Of a stretch of 35,386 nt of DNA, positions 1,798-34,835 are shown in pieces. The position numbers were made by a program, and so were the translations under genes. The DNA comes from Reclinomonas americana ATCC 50394 (Eukaryota). The notes below the pieces were generated by a model, which saw only the letters and a program-made list of their open reading frames with translations, was not told the DNA's origin and ran no database searches. Numbering within the stretch: position 1 is the stretch's first letter; each line of letters starts with the position of its first letter. The stretch covers positions 25,328-60,713 of the forward strand of contig PS015356.1 in NCBI GenBank assembly GCA_048213135.1, given 5' to 3'.

Positions 1798-2049
1798 CAT
1801 AGAATACGTATCCACTCCTCTCCTCTCTCTTTTTGTTTTGTTTTGTTTTGTATGAGGCCATTTAGTAACTATCTGATAAACACGTTTGCGTCAATCTTGC
1901 ATCCAAAATCCGCGACACATCGATTGTGTCAGACGACCAGAACTCCGCCGTGTTTCCAGCTTGTGTGAAGAAGAGAAGAGATAGACACTGTGTGTGTGTG
2001 CAAACAGAGTGCAGTGTGTGAGTGAGAGTGCGCACGTGCGTGTGTGATC

Positions 2050-2163
2050 ATGACGACCCCCGCATGCGTGGAGCGCATTGAGGCACTCACACACACTCCA
2101 CTGGTGTGCCTCTCCCCACTCTCTCTCTCCCTTCTCTCACTGACACTAGCACTCACACGTGCA

Positions 2164-2195
<32 letters not shown>

Positions 2196-11005: not shown

Positions 11006-11038
11006 TGCGGTGTCCTGTGTGCCCCGTATCATGCGATA
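11006..11038. promoter_or_regulatory. Very short head-to-head interval (putative bidirectional promoter or overlapping 5' UTRs)
   Basis: Minus-strand ATG at 11005 and plus-strand ATG at 11039, each followed by a short exon and a phase-compatible GT-AG intron. Confidence 0.45.
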
Positions 11039-13963
11039 ATGAGCGCGCGAGGTGACCCGTCGTCCGCCTCTCTCTCTCCCTCCCTTGTGTGTGTGCGTGA
11101 CTCTCTCTCTCTCTCCACAGAGGCATCTCGATCGTCGCCTGCATCGCCCAAGAGCGGCGGTGGTGTCCCACCATTGCGACGACACACATCATCGCCGTCG
11201 TTGAATGCTGCTGTGCCGATTGTCGTCACTGCCTCTCCACCAACACCAACAGCAGCAGCAGCAGTGCAATCACCATCGCAGTTGCCTCCATGGGTGACTG
11301 CAGCAGCAGCAGCATCGTCGTCACCGATTCCACCGCGATTGGCGCCACTGTCGCCACGACGAGTGTCGATGCCGGTGCCGGTACCTCCTGCACTCGCTGC
11401 TGCCACTGCTGCTGGCAGTGGGGGTGTTGAGTCACCGCCATCACTGTCACCACCGCCGCCATCGTCGTCGTCGATGCAGACATCGATGCCGTCGGTGCCG
11501 TCGCCTGGAGGACCAGTGGTGACGAGCAACAGCGTCGCCAAGGTTAATGTGAATCTCGTTGTTTTGCTCTTCAGTGATGATAGCTTATGTAGCAAGTGTG
11601 TGTAATAGCGATTAGAGTTTGAGGCACCACCACAGCAGCGACGGCAATCGTCGGTGTCGCCGACGCGTGGGCGACCGAAAGCAATTGCGATGCCGCTGGA
11701 GGATAATACGGGAGTGGTGCCGACGCGGCATGGTATGGTATCGCCATTGTCGGAGAGTGCCTTGTCGTCGTCGTCGTATGGTTCGCCGCAGCAGAGGCCA
11801 CCGTTGTTGCAGCTGACGCCGCGAACGCGCATGCGGAGGAGTAGTGATGCGGATTCGGAGGCCTCGGACAACTCGGAGGGCTCTGAGCGCAGTAATGTTG
11901 CATGCATCCGTGGTGGTGTGTCGCGTGTGTGGTTCGCTGCTGATACAGCGCTGTGTGCAGTATGTGCCGATGTATGCGCGAGAGAGTCGGCGCAATCTCA
12001 AGCGCGGCGCCAGTCTCTTCAATGGGGCTCTGTCGCTGCCGAAAATCACCGTCGACGTGCGTCGCCGATTGCGTGCGTGTGAGTGTGTCTCTCGAAGACC
12101 ATGCATCCACTGAATCCGCGTGTAGGATGTCGCCGCGTCGACAGTGTCACCCGACGCCAAGGCCACCGCCAAGAGACGCAAGTGCCTGATTTCGATGCGG
12201 CTGGCCATGACGATTTTCGTGGTGCTCATCATGATTGTGCTTCTCGTGATCGCCGGTTCGTCTTCTACGCTCCCCGTGTCTCACACACTCGAGCGACGTG
12301 GGCTGACGAGGCCATGTGCCTGCAGTGGTTCTCATGTGGACTGTCGGTGTCTCGTCGGTCACCCAAGTGGGCACCGATCTCACCGAGCGCGTGCAGGGTG
12401 AGCTGGTCGACGCCATCACCACCAATGTTGGCATTCAGGTTCGTGATGCTTGCCACCGCCGCACTCTGCCTCCCAGCCACCCTCTCGCTGATGGAGTACT
12501 CGTAGCCGAGGGACCCGCTTATCATGGTGCGATATCTGGTGGAGCAAGGATCGGCGGGCGCCACACCGTCCTCGTTTGACGCCACCAGCAACGTTCTTTT
12601 CAATGTGGTGAGCACGTGGTCCATCGGCCCTCTTCTTCTGTGCGCACGGCAGGAATGCAGACACGTGTTCCTTTCTTGATTCAGGCACAAAACTGGAGCA
12701 ACTCGCTGCAGGCCGTGTGGGTCGCCGACACCAGCGGCAATGTCAATCTGATGCAGTTCGATCCCAATGTTTCGTGCACACATCGCCGAGCCCACCATGG
12801 CCTTCTTTGCCCCCCTTGCGGTATTGCTTAACAGCGCCACGTGCAGAATTCATCCACCGTGTGGCTCCTGCAGCGACGCGCGAACAGCGCAGTATTTGAT
12901 GGATTTGCACGCGACCTCTCCAGTTCACAGTCGACTCCGCTGACGGGAATCACACTCAGCAATCCGGTCGACTTGACCACTGTACTTCAGGTCTCCTTGA
13001 CTGACACGCCACCGCTTCGTCGTCTCACTGCACGCTGACGTGTCGCGCGCAGAGTGACACACTGAGAATACCACTCAGCGACGTGCAAGGAGTCGGCTTT
13101 GTTGGCGCACAGGGAGCCGTCGCTCCCGTGCCGGGTACCTCCACTCAGAGCGTGTTCAGTGTCGACGTGGGCACGTATTATCGACGCAGTCCAACCGTTG
13201 CGCACTGTGGGTGGTGTGGGCTTGCGTGGGCGTCTGCGTGGGCGACTCACCCTCCCAGACACAGGATGCGTCACTCAACGGCAACGGCGCCGGCACAGTG
13301 TCGGTGGCTCATGTGTTTACCAGCCTGCAATCGCAGCTTCGTGACCGCATCCTGTCTTCGGTCGCCGACGTCACGTTTTTCATGATGAGCGCCGCCGACG
13401 GCTCGCTCCTGATGCACTCGTCGGCCAATGTCGTCAACGTCGGCTATCCCTCGTCGGCCAACTCACCAATCACGGCGGCGCAGTGTGACGACTCTCGCAC
13501 TCGTTCCATTGACTCTTGGCTTCGCTCGGTGAGAGGAGCATCAACAATGAGTGACGCATTGTGTTCGTGGCTCATCCAGTGTGGTCGTCAACAGCGATAC
13601 GGCAATGACCTGTCCGGCTTCCAGTGCAACGGGAACAATGCATCGCATGACGTCCTCAACGGCCTTCTTCAGCTCTCTTGCCTCAGCTCTACCACGACCA
13701 CCACATGGCGCGGCTCATATCGCTGGGTGCGTCGTCGTGCGATGATAGCCCATTTCCTGCTGCGCTCTGCCAGACTTACCTGCACTCGTAGATGGTGGTC
13801 ACCTACATTCCCACATCCTTCCTGATCAGCCCCATCAACTCACGCCTGCTGCTGGTGGTCCTTGTCAGTGTTGGCCTCGTGCTCGTCGGTGCCCTCCTCA
13901 CCTTTATCATCATCTACCTCATGACGAGACCACTGACCCGGCTCGGCGACAAGATGCACACTG
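11039..13963 (+). CDS. Receptor-type class III adenylate cyclase, 5' half (Ser/Pro-rich N-terminus, TM1, extracellular Cache-like region, TM2, start of HAMP)
   Basis: MSAR, intron 11052-11120, EASRSSP...; TM1 MTIFVVLIMIVLLVIAVVLMW; extracellular exons; TM2 LLLVVLVSVGLVLVGALLTFIIIYL; HAMP helix 1 MTRPLTRLGDKMHT; donor G|gtgaga at 13964 just before the gap. Confidence 0.75.
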
Positions 13964-14558: not shown

Positions 14559-16256
14559 TCACTTTTCGGTGATTCGCGTGCCAGGAGTCCACGACTCGGC
14601 GAGGTCGGATTGTAGTCGCAATCGTTCACATTCCTCTCGTAACCTGTGTGCGTGAATCAGCAACAGCAACGACGACGTGAGTAACAAGTGGTGTGGCGCT
14701 GGCGAACCTGTGAGCCGCCAGGTCGCCGCGAGCGCGGCGTGAGAGTGCCTCGAACTGGTCGAGCACCTCGATGGCCTTGGCGAATTCGCGATTCTCGTAC
14801 AACATGTAGGCGCGGGTGAAGGTCTCCGCCATCTGGACCTCCTTGGAGGAGGCGCGATCGGACCAGTTCATCTGAGCACGGGGCGGGGAGGGGCAGGGAG
14901 GAGTTGAGAAGAGCACGCAAATGAGTGTGGCACAGCTGCAGGCAATTTTTCCGTACCACCTCGAACACCACGGTGAAACCGGTGCGACCCTTGACGCTCA
15001 CGGTCTCGAGTGGGCGACACACAAAGGACGACGAGGAGGGATCGGACTCGGCTCGTGGCCCGTCGTCGTCGTCATCGTCGCCGTCGTCAAACATGTTGAC
15101 GGCGCCGAGTTCGACGTCGAGCATCGCCAGCGAGCGCTGCATGCGTCGCCTCTCTTCCTCCATCATGCTCACTGCGATGGAAAGCGCTTGTGAGTGAGAT
15201 GCACACACACAATCATACGTGCCGAAGCAGCAGTACTCGCCTTTTCGGCGCTTGCGTTGCAGTCCGAGAGCCTTGGCCACGGTCGGCGGCATGCCCAGTT
15301 CCGACGGCACCGTGACGCACTGACGAAGTGTCTCCGACGACACCAAGATACGCGTCTCGTAGCGCTTATTCAGGCCCTCCAGTCGGCTGGCCAAGTTGAC
15401 AGTGTCACCAATCTGCGTGCATGCTTGTAAGGGCGACAACACAGAGAGAGTGGCGACACGATTGATGCAACACGAAACTGCGGTAAAACTCAAACGATGC
15501 ATGCTGCCGATATTCCCGACGTAGCAGCGACCCGTGTGGATGCCGATGCGAATGCGAATGCGCGGCAAGCCTGAACCCTCCAACTCCCATTTGGCGTTCA
15601 GTTCGCGTAGTGCACGCAAACACTCGAGTGCCGTGTGCACCGCCAGCGTCGCGTGCCTCGGTACATCGTTCGGTGCGTTCCAGAACGCCACTGCGAGTGC
15701 GAGTGAACAGCAGTGAGCTCCCAAGAGACGCATTAATTATGTCGTCCACACTACGGACTCACTGATGGCGTCGCCGATGAACTTGTCGACCGTGCCCTCG
15801 TGTGACACAATCACTTGCGACATGGACTCGAGGAACTCGGTGAGCAGTTTGACCAGGCGCGCCGAGTTGAGCTCCTCGGAGATGGTGGTAAAGTCCTCCA
15901 CATCGCTGGGGTGGAGCGACACATCAGTGTCAAGCATTCTGTGGTCGTACACGACACGTTTCCACGTTACCAGAAGAACACCGACAGCTCGCGCTTCTCC
16001 ATGCCGACACGCACAGCCTGCGGAAACACACAGTGAGGGTGGTGAGTACCAAGCATGCGACATGGGTGCATTCATGTGTGCACACAGCGTACCCTGTTTT
16101 CGCCAACAATCTGCTTGACCAGCTGCACGGGCACGAATTTGGCAAACGAGGCAATGCCGGTGAGCATCTTCGAGAACGACGTCTGCGCCTGGTACATTTC
16201 GGAGAGGCGCGACTGTGGTTTGTAGTGCCGCTGAAAGTCCCACTCCATGCGTGCCA
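14559..16256 (-). CDS. Class III adenylate cyclase, 3' half (rest of HAMP, catalytic domain, TPR-like tail); opposite orientation to its apparent 5' half
   Basis: (V)ARMEWDF..SRLSEMYQAQTSFSKMLTGIASFAKFVP; VFFCDVEDFTTISE; GTVDKFIGDAIMAFWNAP; IRIGIHTG..VGNIGS; FTAIGDTVNLASRLEG; VSVKGR; last exon ..SWTPGTRITEK-TGA (14559-14561). The Lys and Thr specificity residues indicate ATP (class IIIb-like). Confidence 0.9.
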
Positions 16257-16656: not shown

Positions 16657-17450
16657 GACGACTGCGACTCGGCGATGCGCAGTGTCACACTCTCTGCTCA
16701 CACAAAGAGAGGAGAGAGAGAGAGGAGATGCAAAAAGTGAGGGCGCGCTCATCAACCGTCCACGCACCCACGCACACACACACACGTACCACAGACGAGG
16801 GGTGCACTGCTCTTCTTCTCCCTCTCTCGCTCTCTCTCACGCGCGCGCGAAAGATGGAGAGCAGGTAGTGAGGGATGCCGTCTCTCGTCGCAAAATGCAA
16901 AATCGAGTTTCGCGCGCAAAAAATCGCCGCAACGGTTACTTTTGCGGTCAACACGAGCTGCACTTGTCGGATTCGCTCGCAGCACGAGGTGCAAGCGCGT
17001 TCTTTTTTCCTTTGCTTGTTTGTGTTGGTATGTGTGCGGTGATCAGCACCTTTGCTGCTGAGCAATTGCTGGTGTTGACGCGGAGGTCGAACGACGAGCA
17101 TGCACTGCAACTCCCGCACATGCGATTCCGAAAGGAGCGAGTGCNNNNNNNNNNNNNNNNNNNNNNNNNNNNNNNNNNNNNNNNNNNNNNNNNNNNNNNN
17201 NNNNNNNNNNNNNNNNNNNNNNNNNNNNNNNNNNNNNNNNNNNNNNNNNNNNNNNNNNNNNNNNNNNNNNNNNNNNNNNNNNNNNNNNNNNNNNNNNNNN
17301 NNNNNNNNNNNNNNNNNNNNNNNNNNNNNNNNNNNNNNNNNNNNNNNNNNNNNNNNNNNNNNNNNNNNNNNNNNNNNNNNNNNNNNNNNNNNNNNNNNNN
17401 NNNNNNNNNNNNNNNNNNNNNNNNNNNNNNNNNNNNNNNNNNNNNNNNNN

Positions 17451-20400
17451 ATTGACGGCGGAGGCGGACGATGACACGGCCAACACGGCGCGCGGTGTGC
17501 AGCTGGCGCTCACGCACAAGCAGCTGAGCCAGCGAGCTTTGTTGCGCTTGTCGGCCACCTCGTCGTCGCCCAACTTCCTGCAGCATGCGCGGAGTGCGTC
17601 GCAGCGCAGTCTCGACAGTCTGCCGGGTCGGTCGGCGCCGCCTGCGGTGGTGGCGTTGAGCGTGTCCAGTCCGCTGCAGCGCAAGGACTCGGGCTTTGCC
17701 AGTTGCGTACTGCGGTGTCCGTTTCGTGTCTCCCTGCCTGCTGTGCTCTCATTGCATGTCGGGCGTGCACGCACACAGGTGGGAGTCGGCCCACGCGCAT
17801 CACGGTGGACGAAGCGCAGCTCTCGACGGGACAGCCGACGCCATTCACCGCGCGTGTGCACGGAGACGGAGCGCACTTTACGGTTAGTCTTTTTGCTGCC
17901 GTCAACTCCACCACGCGTCTTGATCATGCGACCTCACCCACCAATGCAGATGGATGTGTTGATGACGGAGCCGGCGGTGCCGGGTGTCGTCAAGGAGGTG
18001 CTGTCGACTACCACGTTTGGTTTTGATCGGCGATTCTTGGTGAACACTGTCCGCCGCAACGTGTGGTCCAGTGCGGTCGACCACTTCACCGTTGCGTCCC
18101 ACGTCGCTGCCATTGTTTTTGTTTCGACGTGTGCGCCACCTTACCTGCATGAAAACAGCGACCAAGCGAGGCTCCGATGCACGAGCGCCTCGACGAGTGG
18201 CACCGCCTGGAGCTCGGCCCCTTCATGGAGTACGATTTCGAGTTCCGCACTCGCCGAAGCCTGTGGAGCAATCGGGCCAACCAGTCGTATGGTCCACGAT
18301 GGTGGAGCGCGGTGTGGACCACGCTCGTCGTGTTCTTCAACTTGATCGACTTTCTACTGTTCCACATTCCATTCAACATCCTCCGCTTCGGGCGTGCACT
18401 CGTGCGCACCTTTGCTTCGCGTCACCCCGGCGAGCCGCGTGAGGGATTGCATCGTTGCGTGTGCACGACAATGCTCTCTCTTTCCCTCCCCTTTGGTCGC
18501 TCACAAGTACAACAGGCAAAGCACGGCGATTGTGGCGAGAGGAAGGGCGGCGAAAGTGTGCGCTGGCCGACGGCACTCCGAATCACCCGCACTACCTGCC
18601 ATCACCGAATTTTTCCATTTCTTGTTGCGTTGCAGTGGCGTCGTGTGTTGCTGGTTGATCCGCATGCGCTCGACTCACCACACTCTGCGGGGGCGGTAGC
18701 GGTGCGCGATCTCGATGCTGACGAGGCCGAGGTGCAGTTGGCAGTACATCGTGTGCGTGAGATCCTTCTCATGCGCCTGCTGCAAGTGGCCGTGGGGCCG
18801 TTCGTGTCGGCCGGCTACGGACTCTTTCGCTTCCTGTACGTGCACGTACGCCAGCAATGGCTGCGTGGTCACTTGTCCGAAATCAATGTGGCGCCATATG
18901 TGCAACGCCATGTGGCGCTGTTCCATGTTGCGCAACCATGCTCCCTCTACTCCTGCGTGTGGTTTCTGCCGCACTGACACAGTAGTACGCGCAGAACATG
19001 ATCTCCGAGGTCAAGTATTGGCGCGAAATGACACGCTCACGCCTGGACTACGTGGTGCCGACGCATCAGCAGCTGCTCTACCAAGACATTTCGGATCTGT
19101 TCTTCGAGGAGGACTTTTTGTTCAAGCGTCGTCCGTTCAGCGACGGCCAGGGACTCGGTTGCGTGTGGGACGACGGCGTTGAGAAGTTCGACGACATTGT
19201 TCAGCTGCTGCGCCCGAGTAATGCGCTTCCGCGTCCGGGTGATCCGGCTGCTGAGAGTGCACCGGAGGGACGCGAGCAGCGCATCAAGGAGTGCTGGGCC
19301 TGGGCGGCTCACATGCCGGCTCGGACGGCGCCACTCAAGACATTCCGCGAACGGTCCTCTGACGTGTGGTGGAAACCAGGTGCGTACGAGTATGCATGCG
19401 CGCTCAAGAGCGATGCTTACTCATGTTGTTTGTGCAGGCTTTTTCACGGTGATCTCCAACGTGTTCCCGATGCTGAATTTTGGCTCGGTGTTCGTTTTCC
19501 TGCAAGTCTGGCTCGTGCACTACGATCGCCTCGGTCCCATCGAGGCTGCCTATGCGTACGCCGCGTTGCGCGTCATCTTTTTCGGACTTGGGGTAAGTTC
19601 TGGTCTTGCCATTCTGCGTGCACGCCGAGAATTCGCTATAACGATACACTCTGCAGTACTTGGCCGACGCGTGGACGTGGGCGCCGCACAATCCAGTAAC
19701 ACCCGACCAGTCGGCGTCGCTGAAAATGTCGCGACGACAGTGGCACCAGGTGGGCATGCGTGTCCTGGTGGTGACCATGTCGGTGCTTGGCACGCTGGCC
19801 ATGGACACGGTGTTGCTGCTGCGCGGCGAGAAGCAGCTGTGGGATACGACACTGGATACAAACTCGCCACGGCAGGTTTGTCGCTACGTGGTCGTCGTGT
19901 GTGTCTCCTCCTCCTCCTCACGTGTGACCGCGCAGATTGCTGTGTTGGTCATCACCCGCTGCATTGTGATGCTGCTGACCATGACCGTGACAGGAAGCAT
20001 TGCGTTTATCTTTTCGCTCTCGCTTCTGTCGTTGATCAAGGGCTGGTGGATCGGCTTCTCCAGTAACCGAACGTGGAACCAGGTGCGGCCACTGACCATG
20101 AAGCATGCAAACCAGAGTTCGTCTATTGTCTCACGCGCTTCACCACAGATGGCCAACATTGTGGCGCCCAAGAAATCCGCCATCCGGAAGCCGATCAAGC
20201 CAGTGGAGCCGTCGGGTGGATGGACTGCTGTGGGTGCGGATCGTCACTTCTTGTTTCTTCGCTCTATTGCTCGCGACTGACTCCTCGCATGTAGGCCTCA
20301 AGTCGCCCACCAATGCCGCCGCTATTCGTATCAGTGCCGCCCTGCCGTCGTCTCGACGTACGGCGAGCATGGCCAGTGACGCGGACGATGTAAACAAATT

Positions 20401-23400
20401 GCATGTGGACCGCGAGCTGGCCGGCGTACCGAACAAGGAGTGGAACAAGCGCGAGCGTCTACCGGCCAACCTGTCGATGAAGGATTGGGATGTGGAGTCG
20501 GTGCCGAGTTCGTTGGCGCCAACTGTCACCATTGCTGGCGGCGATCGGCTGACGGCCATGAGCTACGGCGATCACGTACTCACCATCAGCACCAAGATCG
20601 AGGTCAAGTTTGCACGCATCTTCATTCCCCTGGAGCACGACCCGATGCGCATTCGTGTGGCGTGGGCGCGCTATCTCAACCTGATCTTCAACGACTTTTT
20701 CAAGCGCTCGTTGCTGCTGGAGCAAGAGTACAACATGTACAAGCGTGCTCTCGCCATCCGGCACACCTCGCGCACCGACTTTTTGGCCGGCACCTGCAAC
20801 CTGCGGCATTTCGTGTCGCTGCTTCGCCGGCGTCCGCCAAAGAACCAGGAGGCACGACGTCGCCTGTCGACCAATTTTGACGGCCTTCTCAGCAACAGCA
20901 TCCCCACCGTCGATCCGGTCACCTGCATGCCGTCGTTCTGCATCATGATTCCGAGTGGTGCGTGGGTTGTGCACTCTGTGATTTCAAACCTTCTGTTTTG
21001 ATTAACTGACTCACTTTTGTGCACGTGCAGGTGACGAGCCGTTCTTGTACACCATGGATCAACTGCTGGAGGTCACCACGAATCGCGCACCGATTTTGCT
21101 TCACATGATAGAGCGGTACCCGAATGACTGGAAGAACTTTGCCGATCGAGTGCTGTCGGACCCCACCTTTGCCGACGAGGATGGCGACGCCATTGACATT
21201 ATCTTTACGCGCGGCGCACAACGGTCCAACGTGCTCGAGCTGATGGAGCAAGGCGACTATCCACTTGTGTACCACTCGTTCCGCAGCTTCAGCGTGCCTC
21301 TTCAGCGCAAGATTCGCGAGTGGGCCTGCGGACGGTACGTGTGTGTAGATGATGATAATGCTGATGCTCGTCTGCGGCACTGACAATGACTCGCTTTGGT
21401 TCTTTCTCACTACAGTTTCCAACCACTGTTCCGGTGTCTGGAGGGCGTGGCCGGCCAGCGCGATGCCCTCATCTTCCTGCACCGGCTGCAGAACCCGCGA
21501 GACCCCATGAGCCGAGCCATCGAGGTCGTCGACCAGAAGCTGCAAGTGGTGTTTGGCTACCAGTCGTACGGCAAGGTACCTGGAGCCTCGCTGAGAATCG
21601 CCTTCTTCTCTCACTTGCTCACTCGTTGCCGATTACAGCTCAAGCAAGCTGCTGACGGCGATGCGTCTGAACGCGGAGGCCTCCTGAGCGACATTAACAC
21701 GACGCTGGCCAAACTACCGTTCATCGATCTGGTGACCGTGGAGGCCACCACGTTTGAGGGCCAGACCGTGTACGACTCGGTGTGTTACAAGTTTGATCAG
21801 CGACCCGACGGTACCGTGTTGCGTGTCGAAAAGGCTCGCGTGCGAGTTGCGTGCCATGAGAGAAGTGCAGTCGTGTCGAAGACCAGGTTCCACACACGCT
21901 CACTTTCCCCACCTTGTGCAGTTGCCCGGCAATCCGTTCTTGTGTAGCGGCAAGGCAGAGAATCAGCATCAGATGTTTGTGCACGTACGCACTGAAATCG
22001 TGCAGGCTGTAGACTGCAACCAGGACTCGTACTTTGAAGAAATGCTCAAGGTGATTGATCTCCGCACATGTCGTTCGTTCTCTTGATGCACTGACGCGGT
22101 TGATTTTGTGGCAGGCCCCCTGCGCGTTGCGTGAGTTTGCTTTGAATCCGGAGGTGCGAGTCGTCGGATTCTCGGAGACCGTAATCACCGAACGATGGAA
22201 CTTTGTCGGTCGGCTGGCGGCCTTGGCCGAGCGAGCGTTCAACACCACCGTGCAACGCGGTCTCGGTATCATTGGTCTTCGCGCCCACTACGGTCACCCC
22301 GACTTCATCGATGCACGATTCGCTCGCTCCTGTGGCGGTCTCTCAAACAATGCCTACGTCAGCGAGGACATTTTCCTCGGTCTCAACTTGTGGATTCACG
22401 GCTACGAGTCGACGCATGTCGACTATCTGCAGTACGGCAAGGCTCGTGACACGAGCATGCTCACCACGGCCAAATTCGAGTCGAAAGTGGCTGGCGGCTC
22501 TGCGCAGGCTGTTGCGTGGAGATTTCTTGATTTTGAGCACACACGAGCACATCCTCACGTGCTGTCCCATCACGCAGTGCATGTCGCGTGAGGTGCATCG
22601 CTTGTACCGATCGCGTTTGTTTGGTCCGCTGCAGCGGTACTGCTTGTATCACTCCAACATGGGCTTCTACTTGAACCACTACATTGTGCGCAACGTTGTC
22701 ATTTTCTGGGTCCTCACCCACATTTGCATCAACATGGCCAATCACGTTGCGTCTCGAGCGTACCGTACTCTTCTTCTCTTCACTGCACTCGCATCTCACC
22801 AATAACCTCCCCGCGACGCAGTGGATCGAGTCCAAGTTCTTTGTGGCCACCAGCAACGATCCCTGGTTCCTGGCTGTCGGCATGTTCCTTTCCCTGCCCG
22901 CCATTTTCACCATGTGGATTGATCGCGGTTTACTGGGCGGCACTTGGTATTTCATCAAATACGTCGTGCCCATGGCTGGCTATCAATTATTCCACGTCAG
23001 TACCAAGGCCTACGGGTGGGGCATCGGTATCTCCTCGGACGCCAAGTTGCGCCTTCAGAGGGGGGATGCACACGTTTTTTTATGTGGCAGGTGACGGCAC
23101 GGTAGTAGATGTTTGCAATCTCTCTCCCGCACGCATGCACATACAGAGCACTTTGTCTGTGTCTGTCACTCTCTTCTCTGTCCCCACCGGTGACGTGCTT
23201 CCAATCACACACGCTCCCTGTCCAGCTCTTTGTATCCGCCTAACTGGACCGGCATCACTGACGAACCTGCGTCTCCTGACACGGTGCGTCTGATGGATCA
23301 CGACAGATACATTCAGACGGGGCGTACGTTTGGTCTCGAGCACACGCGGTTCCGCGACATTTTGCTGCAATTCAACGACTCGCACTTCAAGTACTGCTTC

Positions 23401-26400
23401 AAGCTGCTCGTGCTGCTGCAAGTCAATGCCATTGCACTTGGTACGGGTGTTGCTGCTTCTACAAGCGTGCGTGACTGCCTGTGCCTGACCACGCACGCGC
23501 ACATGTCGCAGGCGACCAGAGCATCATGTGGAGCGGCTGGCTCATGCTGGGCGTGACGCTGATTGCCCTCAATTTCTTCAATCCCAGCACGCTTCCGATC
23601 CGCACACCGGCCAAGTTCACCACGGTGCGTTATTGTTGCATGTGTGTATGCGATTTGAGTGTGTCTCGCTCACTGCTCACTGAATTGTGTGCTTCACAGA
23701 AATTCATGCAGNNNNNNNNNNNNNNNNNNNNCAAGACATGATGGACTTGCGCGATCACTCCAAATTCTGGCTCGACCGACGAGGCAACAAACTGACCAAG
23801 AATCGACGACGCTGCTGCTCTCCATGGTTTGTCCGTGGCGAGAGGAGAGCCAGGGAAGAGAGAGAATCACGTACTCATGTGGTGTGATGCCGATGCAGGT
23901 TGCCATACACCATCTTCTGGTTCTTGTGGCAGAATCGCATGGCGGCCATTGTCATTGGCTGGTTGACACTGATGATTGTGCGATTGACGGCATTTGTTGT
24001 TGAGTTGTACAACAAGGTCATCAACATTGGCATGACGCAAGGTCTGTTATTTTTTTCGTTCTCGCCGTGCGCAACGAGCTATCGGACTGCTTCTCATCGA
24101 CACGCTTACACGCAGCTGTGGACTACGAAATCCCGTCGGGCTTCCGTCGCATGCCACGCGCCTACTACGAGACCATTAATCAGGTCATTGACGATAAGCT
24201 GATGCAACTCAATCTGCACGCCAACGACATTGGCATGTCGGTTCCACGCGCTCACTTCCCCGGCGACGACCCGACTCCTGTGGACGCCTTCTTGCCCAAT
24301 CGATCGCTGGCTGCCTCGTCACTGCGCCGAAGAGTGGCCTCTGGCGGTTCGCTCAAGCACGCCAGTGAAGTCGGCGGCGCCGGCTCCAACGTGTCTCTGC
24401 TGCGACCGGTGGCGGCATTTGAGGATCTGGCTCGGCGATCGCGTCTCGGCAAGGGCGTGGTGTCGCCCGGCTCGCTGCATCAGCAGCAACAACAGCAGGC
24501 GGCACAATTCTCTGATCTCGACAGTCGAACTACCACTGTACACTTGCACCCGAGTGCGGCAAGCAATGCTGGCGTGCTCGGTGCCTATCTGGCTCGTGTG
24601 CAGCAGTCGCTCGGCAATCGAGAAGACGTAGTGGAGGACCCACACATGCGCTTGTTGCAGTCGGATAACCTGCGTAGCGAGCAAGTTGCGTTGTACACTG
24701 GATTGTGATGGAAGAGAAAATCGCCGAGTCTCACACGTGTGTGTGTGTGTGTGTGTTNNNNNNNNNNNNNNNNNNNNTGTGTGTTGTGAACAGAATCACA
24801 TTGAGAAGGCGGTGACAGAGAACGAGGGACTGGTGATGGAGTTGGTGAAGGACATTAATGATGCTTTCAACGGCTTCTGGTTCTTCAATCCAGAGGAGCG
24901 ACCAGAGGCCACCTCGGCGGTGGTGCGTTGTGGCGCGATCTTACATTCTCTGCTTGGGTGAGTTTTGGAGGACTTATTATTGTTGGCTGCAGACGGCGCG
25001 CATCTGGGACATTGAGGACGACGAGGCCGACGATGATGAGGTGATGGCATACGACGATTACGTGCAGCTGGCGGTGAATGTCACCAAGAAAATCAAGGTG
25101 TGCGGCGGTCGCAGTTTTTGTGGAGTTGATTATTCTTCTGAATACGCAGACACATACACGCAGAAATACCAATACCGCTTGCGCTCGTCGCACGTGTCGT
25201 TCCCAGCACTCGTGCGCCGCATCCTCAACATCGAGTGGCCACAAGAACGACTCGACTTTTTGCTCATGTTTGGCAGCTTTGGTGGTGCCGTCAGCAAGGC
25301 CATTGACCAGTGCAACGACGACACTCTGTCTGGCCAGGAGCGTCGCCATCGTGCTGTCTTGCGCGTGGTCTGGGCCCTCAACACGTACGTCGAAAACACG
25401 TACGACCTCATGCGACGGACTGTACTGTCGCTGCACATGCGCGAGTTCCGCGCGAATCCGCTGTGCGTGGACCTGGTACAGGCGGCGTTCTTGAGCATTC
25501 AAGAAGGTCTCTTTGGTTTCCATCGCCACGACTGTTGATAGGCAGACTACTCACTGCCTGTGATATCTCACTTGCGCAGGCTACCAAATTCTGCTCGGTG
25601 AAGGCGTGCGACAATTTGCGGAAGAGGTGGCGCCGCAGTTCGCAGCTGCGGCCGTACTCGCCAACGACATGGCGTCGATGGATCCAGACACGATGCTGGC
25701 GCGCGCACAAGAGATCAAGTCGTTGTGGAAGACGGTGCAGAAACTGTCGGCTCACCTCGCCGTCACCTCGCAAGAAGTACTGCAGCTGTCGCGAGCGTTC
25801 GAGGTATCCCATTGCACCGTTATTTATTTTGTTGCCTGCACCCACCGACTCACTTGTTTATCGACGCTCGCAGGAGGGTGAGGCGCCGCACTACTTTTTC
25901 GATTCGCGCATGTTGCAGATGAACGGTGTACTGGACGACAGCCCAGCCATTCAAAGCAAGTTGGAACTGGTGACGAGCACACTCATGCAACTGCAGCAGA
26001 TGGAAGCGCGACTGGAGAAGGATTGCATTCGATTGGTGCGCATGAAGCAAGGTCTCAACCCCGACGACGACAGTACGATCATGCCTCTCGATCTGCCGAC
26101 CATGGCCGAGAGCGTGCACTCAGTGTCCAGCTACCGCGGCGGTCTCGGCAGCTCAATTGCTGGCACCCCGCACGCTGCCCTGGAGATGGTCGCCACTCCG
26201 CGCACCGTGATTGAGGAGGCCGGCAAGCAGATGAAGATCACTGTCGTTGGTGCGTACCCACGTCACTCTTTTCTCCTCCGTGCCCGTGGCTCACTCTCTT
26301 CTTTTGTGAATGTGTGCGTGTGCAGCACCACCACCACTGGCTCCATCGAGCGCCGCCGGATCGTCGACGTACAACGAGGACGAGATGCGCAAGGCTTCGA

Positions 26401-28905
26401 ATCGCCGTCAGAGTCAGGACCTCGGTTCCGACATTATGACGGTGGACTCGGAGATTGTCGAGTACGGCGACCTGGAGAAGTCGTCGTCGCAGAGCTCCAT
26501 CACCCACACACATCGAGTGGTCACAAAACGCATCACGCGCTCCGTGTCGCCCACTGGCAAGCCCGTGCGACGAAGTGCAAGTGGCAAGGCAGCGGACAAG
26601 ACCAAGTCTGCCAATACCGCCGCCACTGCCGCAGCCGACGGCGCGCCAGCAGCGGCCTCGTTTGACCTTGGCGGCTCCACACCACTACCACCGCCAATCC
26701 TCACGCCGGTCACGGCGCGGGCGATCTCGCGCAATGGTGGTGGCGGTGGTGGTGGGGGTTCCATGCTGACCACTGTGTCGATGCCTCCAGACGATGCCGA
26801 CAACACTCCGCGCGACTCGTTGGTGTATCTGCAGGCCGGCGTGGTGAACTCGTACCCGTCGTCGCCGTCGTCGCAGGCGTCGGAGCTTGCCGTCGAACTG
26901 GCCACCGATCAGAGTGTGACACCGAACCGCTCGCCCAACACCACACCGATCCGCATGGACGACGGTACAGCTGTTGACGACAGCGAGCAGTCGATTGATG
27001 TGCTCGACGTGGACGAAATTCGCCGCGACTCGCGACTTGTGCGTGAGGTGTCGGCGCGCATCGAGATCCCGTTCATCATGCGCCATCCAACCTATCGCTT
27101 CTCGGTGGACGAGCATGTGGCGTTGGCGTACAAGCGGCAGGAGGGCGTCATTCGCTACATTGGACCCACGGATCTCGGTCCAGGCACGTGGCTCGGCGTC
27201 GAGCTCAAGCTGCCAGAGGGCAACAGCGACGGCATGCTCAACGGTACTCGCTTCTTCCGTTGCCGGCACAACTACGGCGTGTTTGTCAGGCCGGAGAATG
27301 TGCTGCGTTGCAAGGTACTGTGGACAATGATGTCCTTTTTCTTGTGTTTTTCTTCTTCCCTCCACTGATTTCTTGTGACACAGATCTACACTGTGGAGGC
27401 ACAAATGGGTGGCGATCAGATGCAAGAAACAGTGGACATGCGTCGTCGTGCATTGTCGCCGAGTGCGCGAACGGAGGAGTTGACGGCGCGCGAGAAAGGT
27501 GCACTTGCGCAGCACGAGTCGCGCACGCGAGGAATGGCTGCCTCGCCAACAGACATGGTGATGAATGCGGCGTCGCCGGATGTGGCTCCACGCCTGCAAC
27601 GTCGTCAGTCGCTCCTCGGCAACGACAGCGAGTCCAGCAGCAACAGCAGCGGGCGAGGGCGTCCGGTGTGTGTTGACAAATTCATTCACTGTGCAGTCGT
27701 CGTTCCTCGCTCACCGCATCCTGTGTTTGCGTGCAGCGTCGCAACAGTCGGAGCAGTTTTGACGGCAACAGTGCACCGGCGGGAGGTGCCACACGTCCCG
27801 GCGCTGTGAATCCCGGTCGCCGACTGTCGCACTCGCGTCGGCCGTCGATCTCCGACACGACACCGCCGGTCGAGCAGTTGTCGGTGATTCCGCCGACTCC
27901 GCCCGTGGGTGCGCTGCTGCCTCCACTCCTGCCGCTGGCCGACTCTCCAGTGCCACCCGGAGGCGCGTCGCCGCCGGTGCGAGCGTTGGCGTCGGTCGAC
28001 CGACCGCGCAGTTTCAGCTCGGTTCGTATGAGCTTCCAGGCGACGCGGCGGCGCGGTATGCCCGTCAGTGCCACCGACTCGAGCGAGGCCGCAGACATGG
28101 AAATGGTCGCGGCATCAGCTGCGGCGGCACCTGTAGCATCTCCGGCGCCCGCAAAGGGCTCACCGGGAACGCTACGTCGCAATCACTCGCCCGACATTGC
28201 GTCGAAATTCGGCCAGTTGCCGGCGCCGACCTTCCTCGGACCCGACGGCCTTTTGCGACACAAGAACACACTCAGCCAGCCTTCGCTGCACGGAACAGGC
28301 ACTTTGTTGCGCTCGTCGGGCAACAGCGAAGCGACGCTGTCGGTGACCTCGCTGTCGTCGACATCGCTGGTGCATGAACTTGGCGAGTTACCGCCAGTGC
28401 CCTCTGATCACGTCTCGTCGGCGTCGTCGCTGGCCTCTGCGGTGGCCGGCGGAAGTGCGCCGATTGGCAGTGGCTCCGAGGGGCACGTGACGCATCTGTG
28501 GATGCATCGCTTCCGACCCAATGGCGTCGACGGCCCACTGGCCGACTTTATTGCCGATCGGCTGGCCACGGAGCTCTCGCGTGGCCGCTACCCACTGCAT
28601 GCGCCCGATGACGACGAGCTGCGCTACATGGCGGAGAGCGCCAGTGCCAATGGGTTCTCGCGATCCGAGTCACTCATTCCCGGCTCCGGCATCATCGTGT
28701 CGGTGTGCCTGGTCGACGGTGGACGCGTCTCCAAGGACGGCATTCAGCGCATTGCATTCTCGGTCAATGGTGAGTCCCGTGTAGCTCCCCTCCCTCTGCG
28801 ATTGCATGATTACTCACTTGCACGCGACATGCAGGCCCCGATGCAGACATCACGCGCTTTGTGGCTGGGCGGCCAGCAGATCGCTTCCAGGCGCTGGGAG
28901 ACTAA
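17451..28905 (+). CDS. GT48 / FKS-callose-type 1,3-beta-glucan synthase with a long C-terminal extension (helical region, CAP-Gly, low-complexity, terminal globular segment); many exons, 5' end in the gap
   Basis: FKS motifs after splicing: KTFRERS, PKNQEARRRL, MPSFCIMIP, YPNDWKNF, WACGRFQPLFR, RVRLPGNPFLCSGKAENQ, VDCNQDSYFEEMLK, HYGHPD, SEDIFLG, QYGKARD, FESKVAGG..MSRE, GFYLN, YIQTGR..SHF, FFNPS. Phase-compatible GT-AG exons continue to TAA at 28903-28905, crossing two 20-N gaps. Confidence 0.85.
27099..27302 (+). other. CAP-Gly domain inside the glucan synthase tail
   Basis: FSVDEHVALAYKRQEGVIRYIGPTDLGPGTWLGVELKLPEGNSDGMLNGTRFFRCRHNYGVFVRPENV follows the CAP-Gly consensus. Confidence 0.92.
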
Positions 28906-29454
28906 AGATAATAAATTATGGTGTGTGTATGTTGCATGCAAGGGTTCGATGCAGCCGTGCAGGCCGCAGTGATACTTGTAAGTCGGCCGAAACTGAGCAA
29001 CCCCACTTTCAGACAAGACCGTTTTGTTTGATTGTGCGAGAGGAGCGGAGGCTTGATCTGTTTCGTGTCATGTCCGTGTTGTCTCAAGCTCATCGTGTCC
29101 CNNNNNNNNNNNNNNNNNNNNNNNNNNNNNNNNNNNNNNNNNNNNNNNNNNNNNNNNNNNNNNNNNNNNNNNNNNNNNNNNNNNNNNNNNNNNNNNNNNN
29201 NNNNNNNNNNNNNNNNNNNNNNNNNNNNNNNNNNNNNNNNNNNNNNNNNNNNNNNNNNNNNNNNNNNNNNNNNNNNNNNNNNNNNNNNNNNNNNNNNNNN
29301 NNNNNNNNNNNNNNNNNNNNNNNNNNNNNNNNNNNNNNNNNNNNNNNNNNNNNNNNNNNNNNNNNNNNNNNNNNNNNNNNNNNNNNNNNNCCGGGTTCGG
29401 TCCCGGTACCCCCGTACCGTACCGACCGACCGTCGTACGACGACGTACGTCGTC

Positions 29455-29455
<1 letters not shown>

Positions 29456-29500
<45 letters not shown>
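29456..29500. repeat. (CT)n microsatellite, intronic
   Basis: Perfect CT run upstream of the acceptor at 29543. Confidence 0.95.
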
Positions 29501-29503
<3 letters not shown>

Positions 29504-29543
29504 TGATGGAAGAAGCTCATGAGTGTGCATTTGGCCGTTACAG

Positions 29544-32500
29544 TCACTGTGACCGAGGCTTCGTTGTTTCTGGTGGCGCAGAGTGACAGCTGCCCGTCTG
29601 TGCCAGAGCAGCAGCAAGTGTCGCTGACGGGCACTGCTCTGCCGCTTACCTCGGCCGATCCGGCGGGCCTTGCGCTCTTTATCGACACTGCCTGCACTGT
29701 CGCCTTTCCTCGTGTCGTCATGACATCGTCGATTACCGCTGCCACCGCCGCCAGCCTCACCTTTGACACCACCAACATGAACAGCGCTCTGGCCACGAGG
29801 TTGCGCTTGCACTGATCTCTCCTTCTTTCTCCCTCTGGCTCTCTCTGCTCACGGTATGTGTCATGCAGTGGCTTCCTGTGCGGTCGTGCAACTCCGACGA
29901 CCGCCTACAGCAACCTCGTGTCTGTGTTTTTCAGCGCGCCGTGCATTCGCACCCCGCGCGCCATTCGCTACGCCCTCGATTGCGCAGGAGCGACTCAGGG
30001 TGCTAGCGCGGCGACCACGATCCCGGCGACGCAGTCTGTGCCGATCACGGGCAGCAATCTGGCTGCCTCCCTCATTTTCGGCTTGGCTGCGTCGAATGAT
30101 TGCCAGGGCACTGTTGATACCACCACTGTGCCACTGGCTTACACGGCATCGGGCTCCACCCTCGACTATACCACTCAGACGGCAACTGCCAGCACCGTGA
30201 CGTCCCAGTACTTGTGTGCGCGCAAGGTTGCCACTGGCACGTGGGCGTACACTGGCGCACAGATTACGGTGAAGCAGTTGTGTGTGGTGCCTCGCATCCA
30301 GGCCGCCGGCGACAAGAGCATTATGTTGCACCCGGGCTCGTGCACCACAATTACTCAGTCGCAAGTCGTCCCCAATCTGTACATTACCGGATTCGCCGCG
30401 ACTGCCGCTTTTACGCCGTCGTCGTCGTCGGATCAGCTGGTGCTATCCAACGACCCGGCCGGCAATTGCCAGCCCCAGTTCCACGTCAGCACTGTGACGG
30501 CCATCTTTGTGTCGGACACGAGCATTGCGGTGCGCTTTTCCTGTCGATCGCCGGCACTACTCCACACGCGTACTCACTCCTCGCATGCAGTTTGACACCA
30601 CAAAGCAACTGACGCCGATCTCTGCTCCACTCACTCTGTGCACGCGCGCTGTCTTTGAGGACAACTGGGTACCGACGGCGGCCACGATCACCATCAACAA
30701 TGGCTGCTGGTCGGTGGCGTCGCTGTCGATCCCACCGGGCGCCTGCAACATCGACTCCCTGGGCAACGTCGGCAACCTCGATCGCACCATTACTGGCGTC
30801 AACATGCCGAGTTGCGTACCACGCGCTTACCCTTTTGTGAAATGACTCTGCGCACTCACTCTTTGGCCTGCAGCTGCTGCCGGCTTCGTGATTGACATTT
30901 TCGCCCCGGGCACATGCACTCCTGGAGGAGCCGGTGGCGATACTGTCCCGGTAGCAGAGTCTACACAGATGAATCAGGGGCTGTTGATTTCTCCCGACGG
31001 ATTGACGGCAACCAGCCAGGTGGTCAGCTTCATGACACTCACGCACATCCTGCGCCAGGCTGAAACCGTGGGAACACTGCCATACTATGAGATCTGCTAC
31101 TCCACCGATGCCGGCAACCAAGTCTATGTTCGTACCATCGAAGAGAATGCCTGCCTGTGCATGTTCTTACGTTGTTCGTGTGCCTCCCACAGTACTTCTC
31201 CGGCACGACTCTGACGATTGACGGACCGTGTGTGTCGTCGCCGTCACAACCATTCACCTTTGCCATCAACGATGGTGTCGTACAGAACCTGCACGTGGGA
31301 GGCACTGTCGTACCCGCACAGGCGACGCGCTACTCGTCTGGCTGGGATATGAATGACACGGCAATCATCACTTACGATTCCTTGTGCGACCCGACCACTG
31401 TTGCGCTTTGCGTTCATCATCTCCGTATAGTGCAAAAAAAGTTAACAAGTAACTCACTCTCGAGGGACAATCGTCTACACAGACTATTATCGACTCCGTC
31501 GCTGGAACGACGTTCACCTTCGCTACTACCTTCTATGACACGGCGATCGCGACCGTGGACTCGGCGCTGTTGGCGGCACTGCCGGCCGGCCGCAAGCCAA
31601 CTGATTTGAGCCTGTGCATCAATCTCAATGGTGCCGGCACCTCGTACGTGCGCCTGGCGACCATCAATTTCGGTGCGTGGAAGAAGCACATCAGGTGCTT
31701 CATTAGCTGAAGCCTGCATGCTAACTGAAATCTGTGCATGTCTTTCACAGTGTCCATGTCGGTCGTGCGAGACACGTACGCCACTGGCATCTTCAACGCG
31801 CAGCTGCAGCTTGATGGGTTCCCCCTGCCCGCTCCATCCACATTCGACACGGCATCCGCGGCGGCCACGACCGGAAACCCGATCGTGTTTATCACGGACA
31901 CGGCCACCACATGCATCGATGGCGTGGTGCCAACTGGCGCAGCAGCATTGGGAGCAGGCATCACCAACCTGTCGCTGACGATGCTGACCGGAGCGACCGG
32001 GTTTTCGACCACGGCCGAGCACTACGCATTCCAGCTGTCGACCCGTTCGGCGCTGGCGGCGTGTGCGACCACCAATTTTGTGGCTGCGGGCGACTACCTG
32101 CTGTGCGTGCGTCTGGGCGACGGACAGGGTTACATGACGGCAGCCACGTTGCATGTCACTGGTACGCCTCGATAATCAGTTCCCTTTTTGCGTGCACGCG
32201 CACACAGACCTACCTGCTAACCAACATGTTTTGCGCAGCCGACACTACGGCAGTTTCCCCGGGCACATCGATTTCGGCCGCCTTCAACAAGCGCTTCAAT
32301 TTGACGTTGTCGGGCACCTTTAACGACTGCTCTACCTTCTCGATTGTCAACTACGATCCGTCAGTGGTCAGCTGCGGTGCGTCGCTTACCGACACCGTGA
32401 CTGGACGGCTGTCGTTCTCGCTCGACGTGACCCTCGGCCTCGGACGCTACAATGCTGCGTCTGGACTGTACTCGTCGTACACTCTTTCGCTGCAACCCAA

Positions 32501-33910
32501 CTCGACCGTGCGCCGTCCGCTCATGGTTCGTGTTGCTCACTTACTTGCGTTTTTATCGTGTTACATCTTGTGCACTCACCTCTGCCCTTCGCTTGTTGCC
32601 TTGGCGCAGCTGTGCTTCCAAGCCAACTCGAATGGTGCTTTCCTGGCGATTCCGTCCGCGTTCCCCAACACCGGTACCGGCGTGATCAACATTGGCGCAC
32701 GTGAGTGCCAGAGTGCGCTTTCTTTACCTTGACCGTGGTAGATGTCTCATGCGGTACTGCGTGGGTGACACAGACATTCAAGCCGGCACAATTGTGGGTG
32801 ACAACAGCGATGCGTTGTACGCCGCTTCCCAATTCGACGGTGGTGCTGGCACACGCACGTGGCAGATTACCACGCAGTTTACGGAGGAATTTAGTTTCGT
32901 GGCGGAGCGCCTCCTTTTTCGTCTCCAGTGCCTTGCGCTGTGCTGACCCACTCTTGTCTCGCCACAGCTTCGGTGCCGAAGGTGTTCTTCGCGTTGCAGG
33001 GCCTTAACATTGGTGCCAGCGACACTCGTTTCTACTGCTCCACCAAGTTGCGTGTTGTTGCGTGCTTTCTGCTTGCGACACACCAGCGTCCTCATTCCTT
33101 CCTTGTCTTGGTGCGTGCAGTCGTGTGACCACGCAGCAACTGCTGCTCCGCTGCATCACGTACACCAACGTCGACATCAACAAGTTCGTGTGTGTGTGTG
33201 TATTATTGCGTCATCGCTGCAACATTTGATACTGAAAAGAGTTACTCTCTCCTATTGTTTCGTGCAGCCTGTCGCTTGGATGGATGGCGGTCAACATGCC
33301 GAGCACTTCGTCGAACGACTTGCGCGTCGGCAGCATCAACTACGTCGCCGATCGCCACCGCTCGTGGTGGACGCCGACGACAACCTCGTCCACGCGCGCA
33401 CAGTCGTCCTCGATTACCATTGGCAACTATGTGCAGTTCCCGGCGGTGCTCACTGCGCTGCGCCATGGCTACATTAGCGGATCGTACGACGCGGACTTTG
33501 TCGGCGGCGACGTGGAGGCATCGATTACCAAGTTCAACTTCCGCCACCAGGCGTCGGTGCAGACCACGTGCCGTGTGTCACGCCTTGCATTCTCGTACTT
33601 GTCGTACGTGCCGCGTGGTGCGAGTGGATGGGGTCTCCTGGCTGGCGAAGGCAGCCTCACGGCGCCTTTCGCTGACGCCGTTCACGACATTTCCACGGAC
33701 GATTTGACGGCTGACAACACCACGTTTGTGGCCTACCTGCGTGGATGGGCGTTTGCTTCGGCGGGCACAGATGGATCGCTGGCGGTGCAGTTGTCAGTGG
33801 GTGGATCGTTCCCTTCATTCACCGTATCCGTCAGCACGACTGGATCGGCGTCCACCCCGTCACGCATCGATTACTCCTGGGCCGCGCTTGGCATGGCTGC
33901 AACTGTGTAA
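29544..33910 (+). CDS. Large Thr/Ala/Cys-rich, probably extracellular protein with C-terminal H-type lectin-like domains; multi-exon, 5' end in the gap
   Basis: Spliced frame of beta-strand-like modules with recurring Cys (GFLCGR, QYLCARK, LTLCTRA, YEICYS, LSLCIN, YLLCVR, LCFQ). Then TQFTEEFTSVPKVFFALQGLNIG..RFYCSTNRVTTQQLLLRCITYTNVDINNLSLGWMA (H-type lectin pattern) and two weaker similar units; TAA at 33908-33910. Confidence 0.7.
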
Positions 33911-34835
33911 GCGCAGAGACCGGAAGCCTGGGGGTTTTGATGTTTTCAATATTTTGCCTGTGTCTGTGTTTTGTTTTCATTTTGCTGTTTTGCTCGTGTC
34001 TCGCCGACACCAGAAATGAATGCTCTCGAAGCTTCGCTGTTGTTATTATTCACCATAAAGCACATGCAGATTTTACTGCTGTGAGAGACCTCAGCGCGGC
34101 GTGGATCGCTGTCGTCGTTGAGTCGACGATGCTGAGCCACTGGTCGCACAAGGACAATGAGGCGTGTCAGCGAATTGGGGAGGTGGGGAGAAGAACGCAT
34201 AAAGAANNNNNNNNNNNNNNNNNNNNNNNNNNNNNNNNNNNNNNNNNNNNNNNNNNNNNNNNNNNNNNNNNNNNNNNNNNNNNNNNNNNNNNNNNNNNNN
34301 NNNNNNNNNNNNNNNNNNNNNNNNNNNNNNNNNNNNNNNNNNNNNNNNNNNNNNNNNNNNNNNNNNNNNNNNNNNNNNNNNNNNNNNNNNNNNNNNNNNN
34401 NNNNNNNNNNNNNNNNNNNNNNNNNNNNNNNNNNNNNNNNNNNNNNNNNNNNNNNNNNNNNNNNNNNNNNNNNNNNNNNNNNNNNNNNNNNNNNNNNNNN
34501 NNNNNNNNNNNNNNNNNNNNNNNNNNNNNNNNNNNNNNNNNNNNNNNNNNNNNNNNNNNNNNNNNNNNNNNNNNNNNNNNNNNNNNNNNNNNNNNNNNNN
34601 NNNNNNNNNNNNNNNNNNNNNNNNNNNNNNNNNNNNNNNNNNNNNNNNNNNNNNNNNNNNNNNNNNNNNNNNNNNNNNNNNNNNNNNNNNNNNNNNNNNN
34701 NNNNNNNNNNNNNNNNNNNNNNNNNNNNNNNNNNNNNNNNNNNNNNNNNNNNNNNNNNNNNNNNNNNNNNNNNNNNNNNNNNNNNNNNNNNNNNNNNNNN
34801 NNNNNNNNNNNNNNNNNNNNNNNNNNNNNNNNNNN

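Follow-up and report, generated by a model that had tools for sequence, protein, structure and literature searches.

The locus analysed here raises the question of whether a beta-1,3-glucan synthase of glycosyltransferase family 48 (GT48) and a CAP-Gly domain encoded downstream on the same strand are parts of a single polypeptide, and what such a tail could do for the enzyme. Both lie in a 35,386-base stretch of the genome of Reclinomonas americana ATCC 50394 (contig PS015356.1), hereafter the window, which has about 58% G+C outside gaps and contains densely packed genes with many short introns. It is interrupted by nine runs of N; three are exactly 20 N long, and the other six measure 289-847 N. 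Judging from its sequence features, it is probable that the GT48 part and the tail form one transcription unit. The fuller reading, in which one gene of about 30 exons encodes at least about 3050 residues, with a GT48 enzyme followed by a docking or regulatory tail bearing the CAP-Gly domain, is moderately favored. The main risk to the single-gene reading is an assembly fault or sequence hidden in a gap.

A predicted spliced chain from GT48 to CAP-Gly

The gene model was built with a codon table derived from seven training segments and a splice-aware dynamic program run over 17451-29100, followed by three hand corrections made from the sequence. This parse yielded a spliced chain on the plus strand composed of 30 exons (9159 nt, 3052 codons), the sole stop of which is the TAA at 28903-28905. 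A first-pass annotation of this DNA had claimed that the frame continues without a stop as far as 28905, and the chain of 3052 residues indeed lacks an internal stop and ends at the same TAA. The start proposed there, 17451, proved to be only the edge of a 306-N gap (17145-17450). The start codon is not visible because the 5' end of the chain enters this run of N. The last intron (28770-28834) is bounded by GTGAGT...CAG, and a possible polyadenylation signal, AATAAA, starts at 28910, 5 nt past the stop. The features of the chain are listed below with the evidence that defines each of them.

17452-20215, plus strand: N-terminal GT48 part with the first hydrophobic helices, exons 1-9 (splice-aware chain, hydropathy)
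20295-22510, plus strand: cytosolic glycosyltransferase domain of GT48, exons 10-14 (PF02364, FKS1 alignments)
22578-24041, plus strand: C-terminal membrane block of GT48, exons 15-20 (tblastn and phmmer to about 23620, hydropathy)
24116-24684, plus strand: exon 21, a 190-residue low-complexity stretch ending at the junction donor (codon signal, composition)
24685-24793, plus strand: junction intron, phase 0 on both sides (splice signals, codon scores)
24794-26249, plus strand: exons 22-26, a mostly helical region of about 390 residues and unknown family (codon score, AlphaFold on one exon)
26326-27098, plus strand: Ser/Thr/Pro-rich linker 1, first part of exon 27 (31% Ser/Thr/Pro)
27099-27314, plus strand: CAP-Gly domain (PF01302, matches to solved structures)
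27384-28309, plus strand: Ser/Thr/Pro-rich linker 2, exon 28 and first part of exon 29 (31% Ser/Thr/Pro)
28310-28905, plus strand: C-terminal segment of unknown fold, formed by the end of exon 29, intron 28770-28834, and exon 30 with the TAA (chain)
28910-28915, plus strand: AATAAA, candidate polyadenylation signal (motif count)

The FKS/GT48 catalytic core announced in the first-pass annotation was recovered in two ways. The Pfam family Glucan_synthase (PF02364) matched the open reading frame (ORF) 22055-22588 with an E-value of 1.7e-27 (96.5 bits against a gathering cut-off of 37.2), and GT48 relatives aligned by tblastn cover 20600-23450. A weak N-terminal match was found on 20102-20998, and Pfam scans of the pieces of exons 1-9 gave no family. 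Searching with the GT48 core using HMMER returned 695 library proteins at E <= 0.001, none of them near full identity; the best was 52% identical, and three of the top four were proteins of Cyanophora paradoxa (EukProt). The 150 best GT48 representatives from this search served as our comparison set.

We then compared the core with the yeast enzymes. It aligned with residues 1141-1267 of FKS1 (1.6e-19), with the catalytic ED pair matched ED-to-ED, and exon 13 aligned with FKS1 1073-1114 and GSC2 1092-1133, with the Lys and Asn kept and the D-A-N motif reading D-C-N. The printed alignment of this nucleotide-sugar site is that of GSC2, and the FKS1 numbering is taken from the tabulated range. 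According to the available text of PMC12715860, E1221 and D1222 form the catalytic ED pair of yeast Fks1, and K1082, N1085 and the D-A-N motif (D1102) make up the UDP-glucose site. With the catalytic ED pair conserved, as well as Lys and Asn at the nucleotide-sugar site, the predicted GT48 part apparently is catalytically competent, though divergent.

Toward its C-terminal end, homology to relatives fades. Alignments by phmmer and tblastn reach about 23620, and the last helix aligns weakly in P0006, a Cyanophora protein. Exon 19 spans the 20-N gap at 23712-23731; when checked for a suspected resemblance to a conserved cytosolic loop of FKS, the exon across this gap gave no match in the PDB and no consistent short-BLAST match in the 150 relatives. 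The intron at 23046-23306 is 261 nt long, three to four times the usual length, and the alignments of P0006 and P0007 are contiguous across it, therefore it does not represent a missed exon. Exon 21 has a strong codon signal in its frame and is composed of Ser, Thr, Pro, Gly, Ala and Gln to 44%; a Pfam scan assigned it to no family.

At the other end of the chain, Pfam CAP_GLY (PF01302) matched ORF 26310-27365 at 27126-27302 with an E-value of 6.6e-21 (74.4 bits, where the cut-off is 26.5); the match takes in positions 7-65 of the 65 in the profile. Furthermore, 34 solved CAP-Gly sequences were matched, the best being the CAP-Gly domain of KIF13B (2.8e-18). These matches substantiate the clear CAP-Gly domain that had been placed at 27099-27302, and the composition of the two segments around it, each with 31% Ser/Thr/Pro (26326-27098 and 27384-28309), agrees with the Ser/Thr/Pro linker and second linker described with it. 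Other parts of the tail proved less tractable. The single-sequence AlphaFold model of the exon at 25164-25505 is all-helical, with five helices in a bundle-like arrangement (predicted local distance difference test, pLDDT, 58.9); hence the helical half of the earlier description of this region as helical or coiled-coil holds on one low-confidence model, which does not show a long coiled coil. The C-terminal segment, previously seen as folded-looking, gave an unusable single-sequence model (pLDDT 40.6), which did not confirm this description. CAP-Gly apart, Pfam scans of seven tail pieces produced only sub-threshold noise, and detected no motor, coiled-coil dimeriser or zinc knuckle. The helical region had no usable match in the ESM Atlas, and a word-indexed homolog search of its helical exon gave no match.

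The probable junction intron and alternative gene structures

Whether the two halves are joined depends on a single intron, 24685-24793. Its donor, GTTGCGTT at 24685, has the hexamer GTTGCG, and its acceptor is AACAG, with the AG at 24792-24793. The intron contains the 20-N gap 24758-24777, flanked on both sides by (GT)n, just as the first-pass annotation had reported. We observed that GTTGCG is the commonest donor of the gene, as it is used by 9 of the 20 other modelled introns of the GT48 part. Two of these introns (22511-22577 and 23046-23306) are bracketed by contiguous P0006/P0007 alignments, and three other genes in the window were found to use GTTGCG as a donor before any scoring bonus was given to it. 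A single position weight matrix gave the junction donor just 2.2 bits because it mixes two donor classes, and hexamer counts were used in its place. The ten strong donor hexamers occur 34 times inside the 9159 nt of exons, and at this frequency a spurious strong donor would fall in phase within 30 nt of an actual stop with a probability of 0.036, or 0.0065 for GTTGCG alone.

Codon statistics on both sides of the intron agree with this donor. An in-frame TGA lies at 24706-24708, 21 nt past the proposed donor, and the seven codons between them score -1.65, which is below 96% of 433 exon windows and equals the median for the first 21 nt of 28 other introns. The coding signal thus ends at the donor, not at the TGA. 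On the acceptor side, the 14 codons of 24794-24835, which lay outside the training set, score 9.6 bits, a value that just 4% of 216 exon windows attain and that none of 838 stop-free non-coding windows reaches. The tail has its first in-frame ATG at 24836, with G at -3 and +4. Because the 14 codons upstream of this ATG score as coding, exon 22 is coding from the acceptor on and behaves as an internal exon without a visible start of its own. Furthermore, a CTCAC branch-like motif is present at 24729-24733, and the visible sequence from this motif to the acceptor is free of AG. Among the introns of 17451-34000, a CTCAC, CTGAC or CTTAC motif lies 10-35 nt upstream of most acceptors and is probably the branch site. 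With the junction set aside, the median intron length is 71 nt (58-92 nt, plus the one of 261).

Several observations weigh against a single gene. The gene model is our own dynamic-programming parse, with donor scores tuned on the same window. The TGA at 24706-24708, which the first-pass annotation did not mention, would end the GT48 protein if the intron were retained or the sequence read unspliced, and the decisive intron holds an assembly gap whose true size may differ from its 20 N. At 109 nt, this intron exceeds the median, and its branch-like motif is about 60 nt from the acceptor, farther than usual. The donor classes of the two halves also differ, with GTTGCG used by 9 of 20 introns in the GT48 part versus 0 of 8 in the tail (p = 0.024), which suggests that the two halves have separate histories and fits a tail that used to be a gene of its own. 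Finally, comparison with the 150 best-ranking GT48 representatives gave no match to the tail or to the CAP-Gly domain, nor did the 20 GT48 loci from metagenomes (each at most 45% identical) show similarity to either, and P0006 ends about 21 residues past the helix that is weakly aligned to the last helix here.

These points would be accommodated by two adjacent genes on the same strand, in which GT48 ends at the TGA, a CAP-Gly gene encoding about 1200-1300 residues begins within the gap or shortly past it, and the intron-like features are coincidental. The ATG at 24836, with G at both -3 and +4, offers such a gene a start, the absence of the tail from GT48 relatives and the difference in donor classes fit separate genes, and FKS proteins typically end soon past their last helices, as P0006 does. 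However, the 42 nt upstream of this ATG outscore every stop-free non-coding window. A start codon would need to be concealed by a gap with (GT)n on either side. The codon signal ends with the donor, and an in-phase GTTGCG so close to a real stop would be a rare coincidence. Moreover, only 127 nt, 20 N included, would be left for a 3' untranslated region and poly(A) site together with a promoter and the next 5' untranslated region, against about 815 nt (TAA 28905 to an ATG near 29720) in the sole tandem pair of the window in which such a spacer is measurable. The plus strand of the whole window contains only three AATAAA; one follows the tail stop, and none lies between the TGA and the gap. We consider two genes rather unlikely.

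An assembly artefact, in which the join at 24758-24777 links contigs that are not neighbors or hides a long stretch, would make the GT48 and CAP-Gly loci unrelated or farther apart. Nine runs of N in 35 kb do indicate a fragmented assembly, both flanks of this gap end in a microsatellite that must recur, and the first-pass annotation suspected a mis-join nearby. Against this, exon 21 ends in a donor with no coding signal downstream and exon 22 begins at an acceptor with no visible start, therefore each half needs a partner, and the partner provided by the assembly agrees in phase (0/0), strand and orientation. In addition, a run of 20 N beside sized gaps (289-847 N) suggests a minimal gap, since by assembler convention such a run presumably denotes a small gap supported by read pairs. 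An artefact is accordingly given a low probability. Similarly improbable is one locus with two products through regulated splicing of 24685-24793, where retention would give a stand-alone GT48 enzyme ending at the TGA and splicing would give the CAP-Gly-tailed one. The stop 21 nt into the intron invites this interpretation, and the greater-than-median length, the distant branch-like motif and the (GT)n tract could weaken splicing; yet early in-frame stops in introns are the rule rather than a signal. A regulated intron giving both products is compatible with the single-gene reading. The single polypeptide proposed in the first-pass annotation is thus probable rather than proven: donor class, branch-like motif and codon statistics favor it, while the gap lies in the critical intron and no ortholog with the tail was found among the relatives compared.

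GTTGCG(Y), with T at intron position +3, constitutes a major class of splice donors in this genome. It occurs at the plus-strand donors 17702, 18091, 18454, 18624, 18927, 21846, 22511, 22746, 23046 and 24685, and elsewhere in the window at 3327, 29800, 30811 and 31400 (plus strand). GTTCGT constitutes another donor class (12256, 12439, 31128, 32526). Both are hardly used by the minus-strand genes of 5500-11000 and 14600-16200, nor by the CAP-Gly tail. We looked for an introner family among the GTTGCG introns and found no common sequence beyond the splice signals. A pyrimidine at +7 was rejected as a discriminator of donors, as it is also present in 6 of 6 exonic copies that are not donors. We also rejected a GT48 end by read-through of intron 24042-24115 (stop at about 24200) with a tail gene beginning at exon 21, as this would make the coding regions overlap, and the score of the read-through frame is that of non-coding sequence. 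A gene finder trained on GTRAGT donors would probably miss introns of these two classes and split or shorten this gene.

Location and possible role of the tail

If spliced as modelled, the protein would consist of about 1680 N-terminal residues forming a GT48 enzyme with membrane helices, a cytosolic glycosyltransferase domain and more membrane helices. Past the last helix, a disordered stretch of about 190 residues would be joined through the ordinary 109-nt intron to an extension of about 1180 residues. This extension would begin with a helical domain assigned to no known family and continue through a first Ser/Thr/Pro linker, the CAP-Gly domain and another linker to a short C-terminal segment. 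We propose that this extension may be a cytosolic docking and regulatory arm. Such an arm would connect the synthase, or its delivery vesicles, with alpha-tubulin, EB or a CLIP-like protein as a partner that has an acidic-aromatic C-terminal tail, or with some other partner, and its linkers would be controlled by phosphorylation by basophilic kinases.

A cytosolic tail is likely, given the fusion, although simple helix parity would argue otherwise. Kyte-Doolittle analysis at a threshold of 1.5 revealed four hydrophobic regions before the glycosyltransferase domain (one of them double) and four after it. The peaks before the domain are located at 18324-18380, 19446-19502, 19747-19824 and 19936-19992, and the final strong helix occupies 23945-24001. 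It is the only strong one downstream of the last Arg-rich loop; this loop should be cytosolic by the positive-inside rule, therefore simple parity would put the tail outside the cell, which counts against the proposed arm, unless an aromatic segment of 11-16 residues just upstream of helix 23945-24001 enters the membrane. Yeast Fks1 structure papers report, in the portions available, 15 or 17 helices and horizontal helices after a cytosolic loop.

The linkers provide a hint in the opposite direction. The tail contains eight [RK][RK]x[ST] sites, versus 2.4 +/- 1.5 in shuffled sequences, and only 3 of 2000 shuffles reach eight. This enrichment suggests that basophilic kinases may regulate the tail, which in turn hints that it is cytosolic. 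The eight sites, mostly RRxS, cluster in the two linkers around the CAP-Gly domain (26326-28309, model residues about 2283-2722).

What the CAP-Gly domain would bind is less clear. In canonical CAP-Gly domains, the GKNDG motif contacts the acidic-aromatic C-terminal tails of tubulin, EB and CLIP proteins. Here, GNSDG is found at 27219-27233 where GKNDG is expected (Lys to Asn and Asn to Ser), opposite GKNDG in all four of the solved CAP-Gly alignments shown, which speaks against a microtubule mechanism. Overall, binding of microtubules or EB by this domain appears possible but doubtful from its sequence. The microtubule-patterned glucan synthesis put forward in the first-pass annotation found no support in any test carried out here and is weakened both by GNSDG and by the helix parity. 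An equally simple alternative to microtubule tethering is that the arm helps to deliver vesicles that carry the synthase. In Zymoseptoria, vesicles moving along microtubules carry glucan and chitin synthases together, according to the available text of PMC7967022.

Relatives, known systems and neighboring genes

The combination of GT48 with CAP-Gly looks undescribed. The first-pass annotation knew of no such architecture, and the absence of the tail from the 150 relatives and the 20 metagenome loci accords with this. Literature searches found no description of a GT48-CAP-Gly fusion in the text available, where the only co-mention of GT48 and CAP-Gly places them in separate table rows; a database-only record may exist. 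Of the 152 proteins compared, the tail was matched by two generic CAP-Gly proteins only, which were also the only matches of the CAP-Gly ORF in a word-indexed search of longer proteins. The same kind of search with the GT48 core returned no match among longer proteins, but it is insensitive here, as HMMER found relatives of that length. Other departures from the usual GT48 architecture were seen among the relatives: P0004 (ENA metagenome, 2723 residues) carries a tandem pair of GT48 cores, in P0112 a GH81-like domain precedes GT48 on the N-terminal side, and in P0116 GT48 is followed by a C39 peptidase, DUF6531, a 3-keto-disaccharide hydrolase domain and RHS repeats.

The synthase part resembles fungal FKS1 and GSC2 and other GT48 beta-1,3-glucan (callose) synthases in its Pfam domain, its membrane/glycosyltransferase/membrane order, its ED pair and its Lys and Asn, and its core is 46-53% identical to three GT48 proteins of Cyanophora paradoxa, the nearest sequences. 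It differs from these relatives in the length that follows the last helix, about 1370 residues including CAP-Gly if spliced and 190 if not. Compared with yeast Fks1, it has D-C-N in place of D-A-N, and fewer hydrophobic helices after the Arg-rich loop, set against the total of 15-17 given in the available portions of the Fks1 papers. With CAP-Gly proteins such as KIF13B, CLIP-170/restin, CLIP-115, CLIPR-59, TBCB and dynactin p150, it shares a clear fold signature and, with the CLIPs, the position of CAP-Gly between Ser-rich, basic linkers. It differs in having GNSDG where the four alignments shown have GKNDG, and its single copy would lie on the C-terminal side of a polytopic membrane enzyme.

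In plants, the adaptor CSI1/POM2 links cellulose synthase to microtubules. The positioning of a glucan synthase by cortical microtubules, as proposed for this locus, would follow a similar logic, except that the links in plants are non-covalent and made through adaptors, whereas here the link, if there is one, would be part of the enzyme itself. In tobacco pollen tubes, a biochemical association of callose synthase with microtubules is stated in the available text of PMC9110548. Fusion of a wall-polymer synthase to a cytoskeleton-binding module has a precedent in fungi (PMC4425547), in which chitin synthases carry a myosin motor-like domain, at least in the portions of text available (PMC4425547, PMC3252574), and thus combine a processive wall-polysaccharide synthase and a cytoskeleton-binding module in one polypeptide. 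The fungal fusions consist of a GT2 chitin synthase with an N-terminal module directed to actin, whereas here GT48 would be joined to a C-terminal, non-motor CAP-Gly domain.

Upstream of the glucan synthase gene, and head-to-head with it, lies a gene on the minus strand whose ORF 14660-15736 encodes an adenylate/guanylate cyclase catalytic domain (PF00211, 2.1e-07). Downstream, a long (CT)n microsatellite occupies 29445-29500, about 220 nt upstream of the probable start of the next gene (about 29720, plus strand), the first intron of which (29800-29868) has a GTTGCG donor. Nine long neighboring ORFs (2000-4600, 6000-13900, 29700-34000) matched no Pfam family at E <= 0.01. Because these ORFs lack a Pfam family and the identity of the GT48 core to its relatives is at most 52%, the sequence would point to a poorly sampled eukaryotic lineage.

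How cells choose the sites at which wall polymers are deposited is a core problem of morphogenesis. It is unlikely, though conceivable, that this gene encodes a GT48 enzyme with a microtubule or plus-end docking module of its own, which would be the first GT48 tied covalently to microtubules, free of an adaptor, tuned by phosphorylation of its linkers and arisen independently. If this were true, glucan deposition in a wall, cyst, scale or division plate would be placed directly by microtubules, and the enzyme would represent a third, independent solution beside plant adaptors and the fungal chitin synthases fused to a myosin-like domain, of which it would be the microtubule counterpart. It would then provide a compact one-protein system, with a tail open to deletion or exchange, in which to ask whether microtubules position glucan synthesis.

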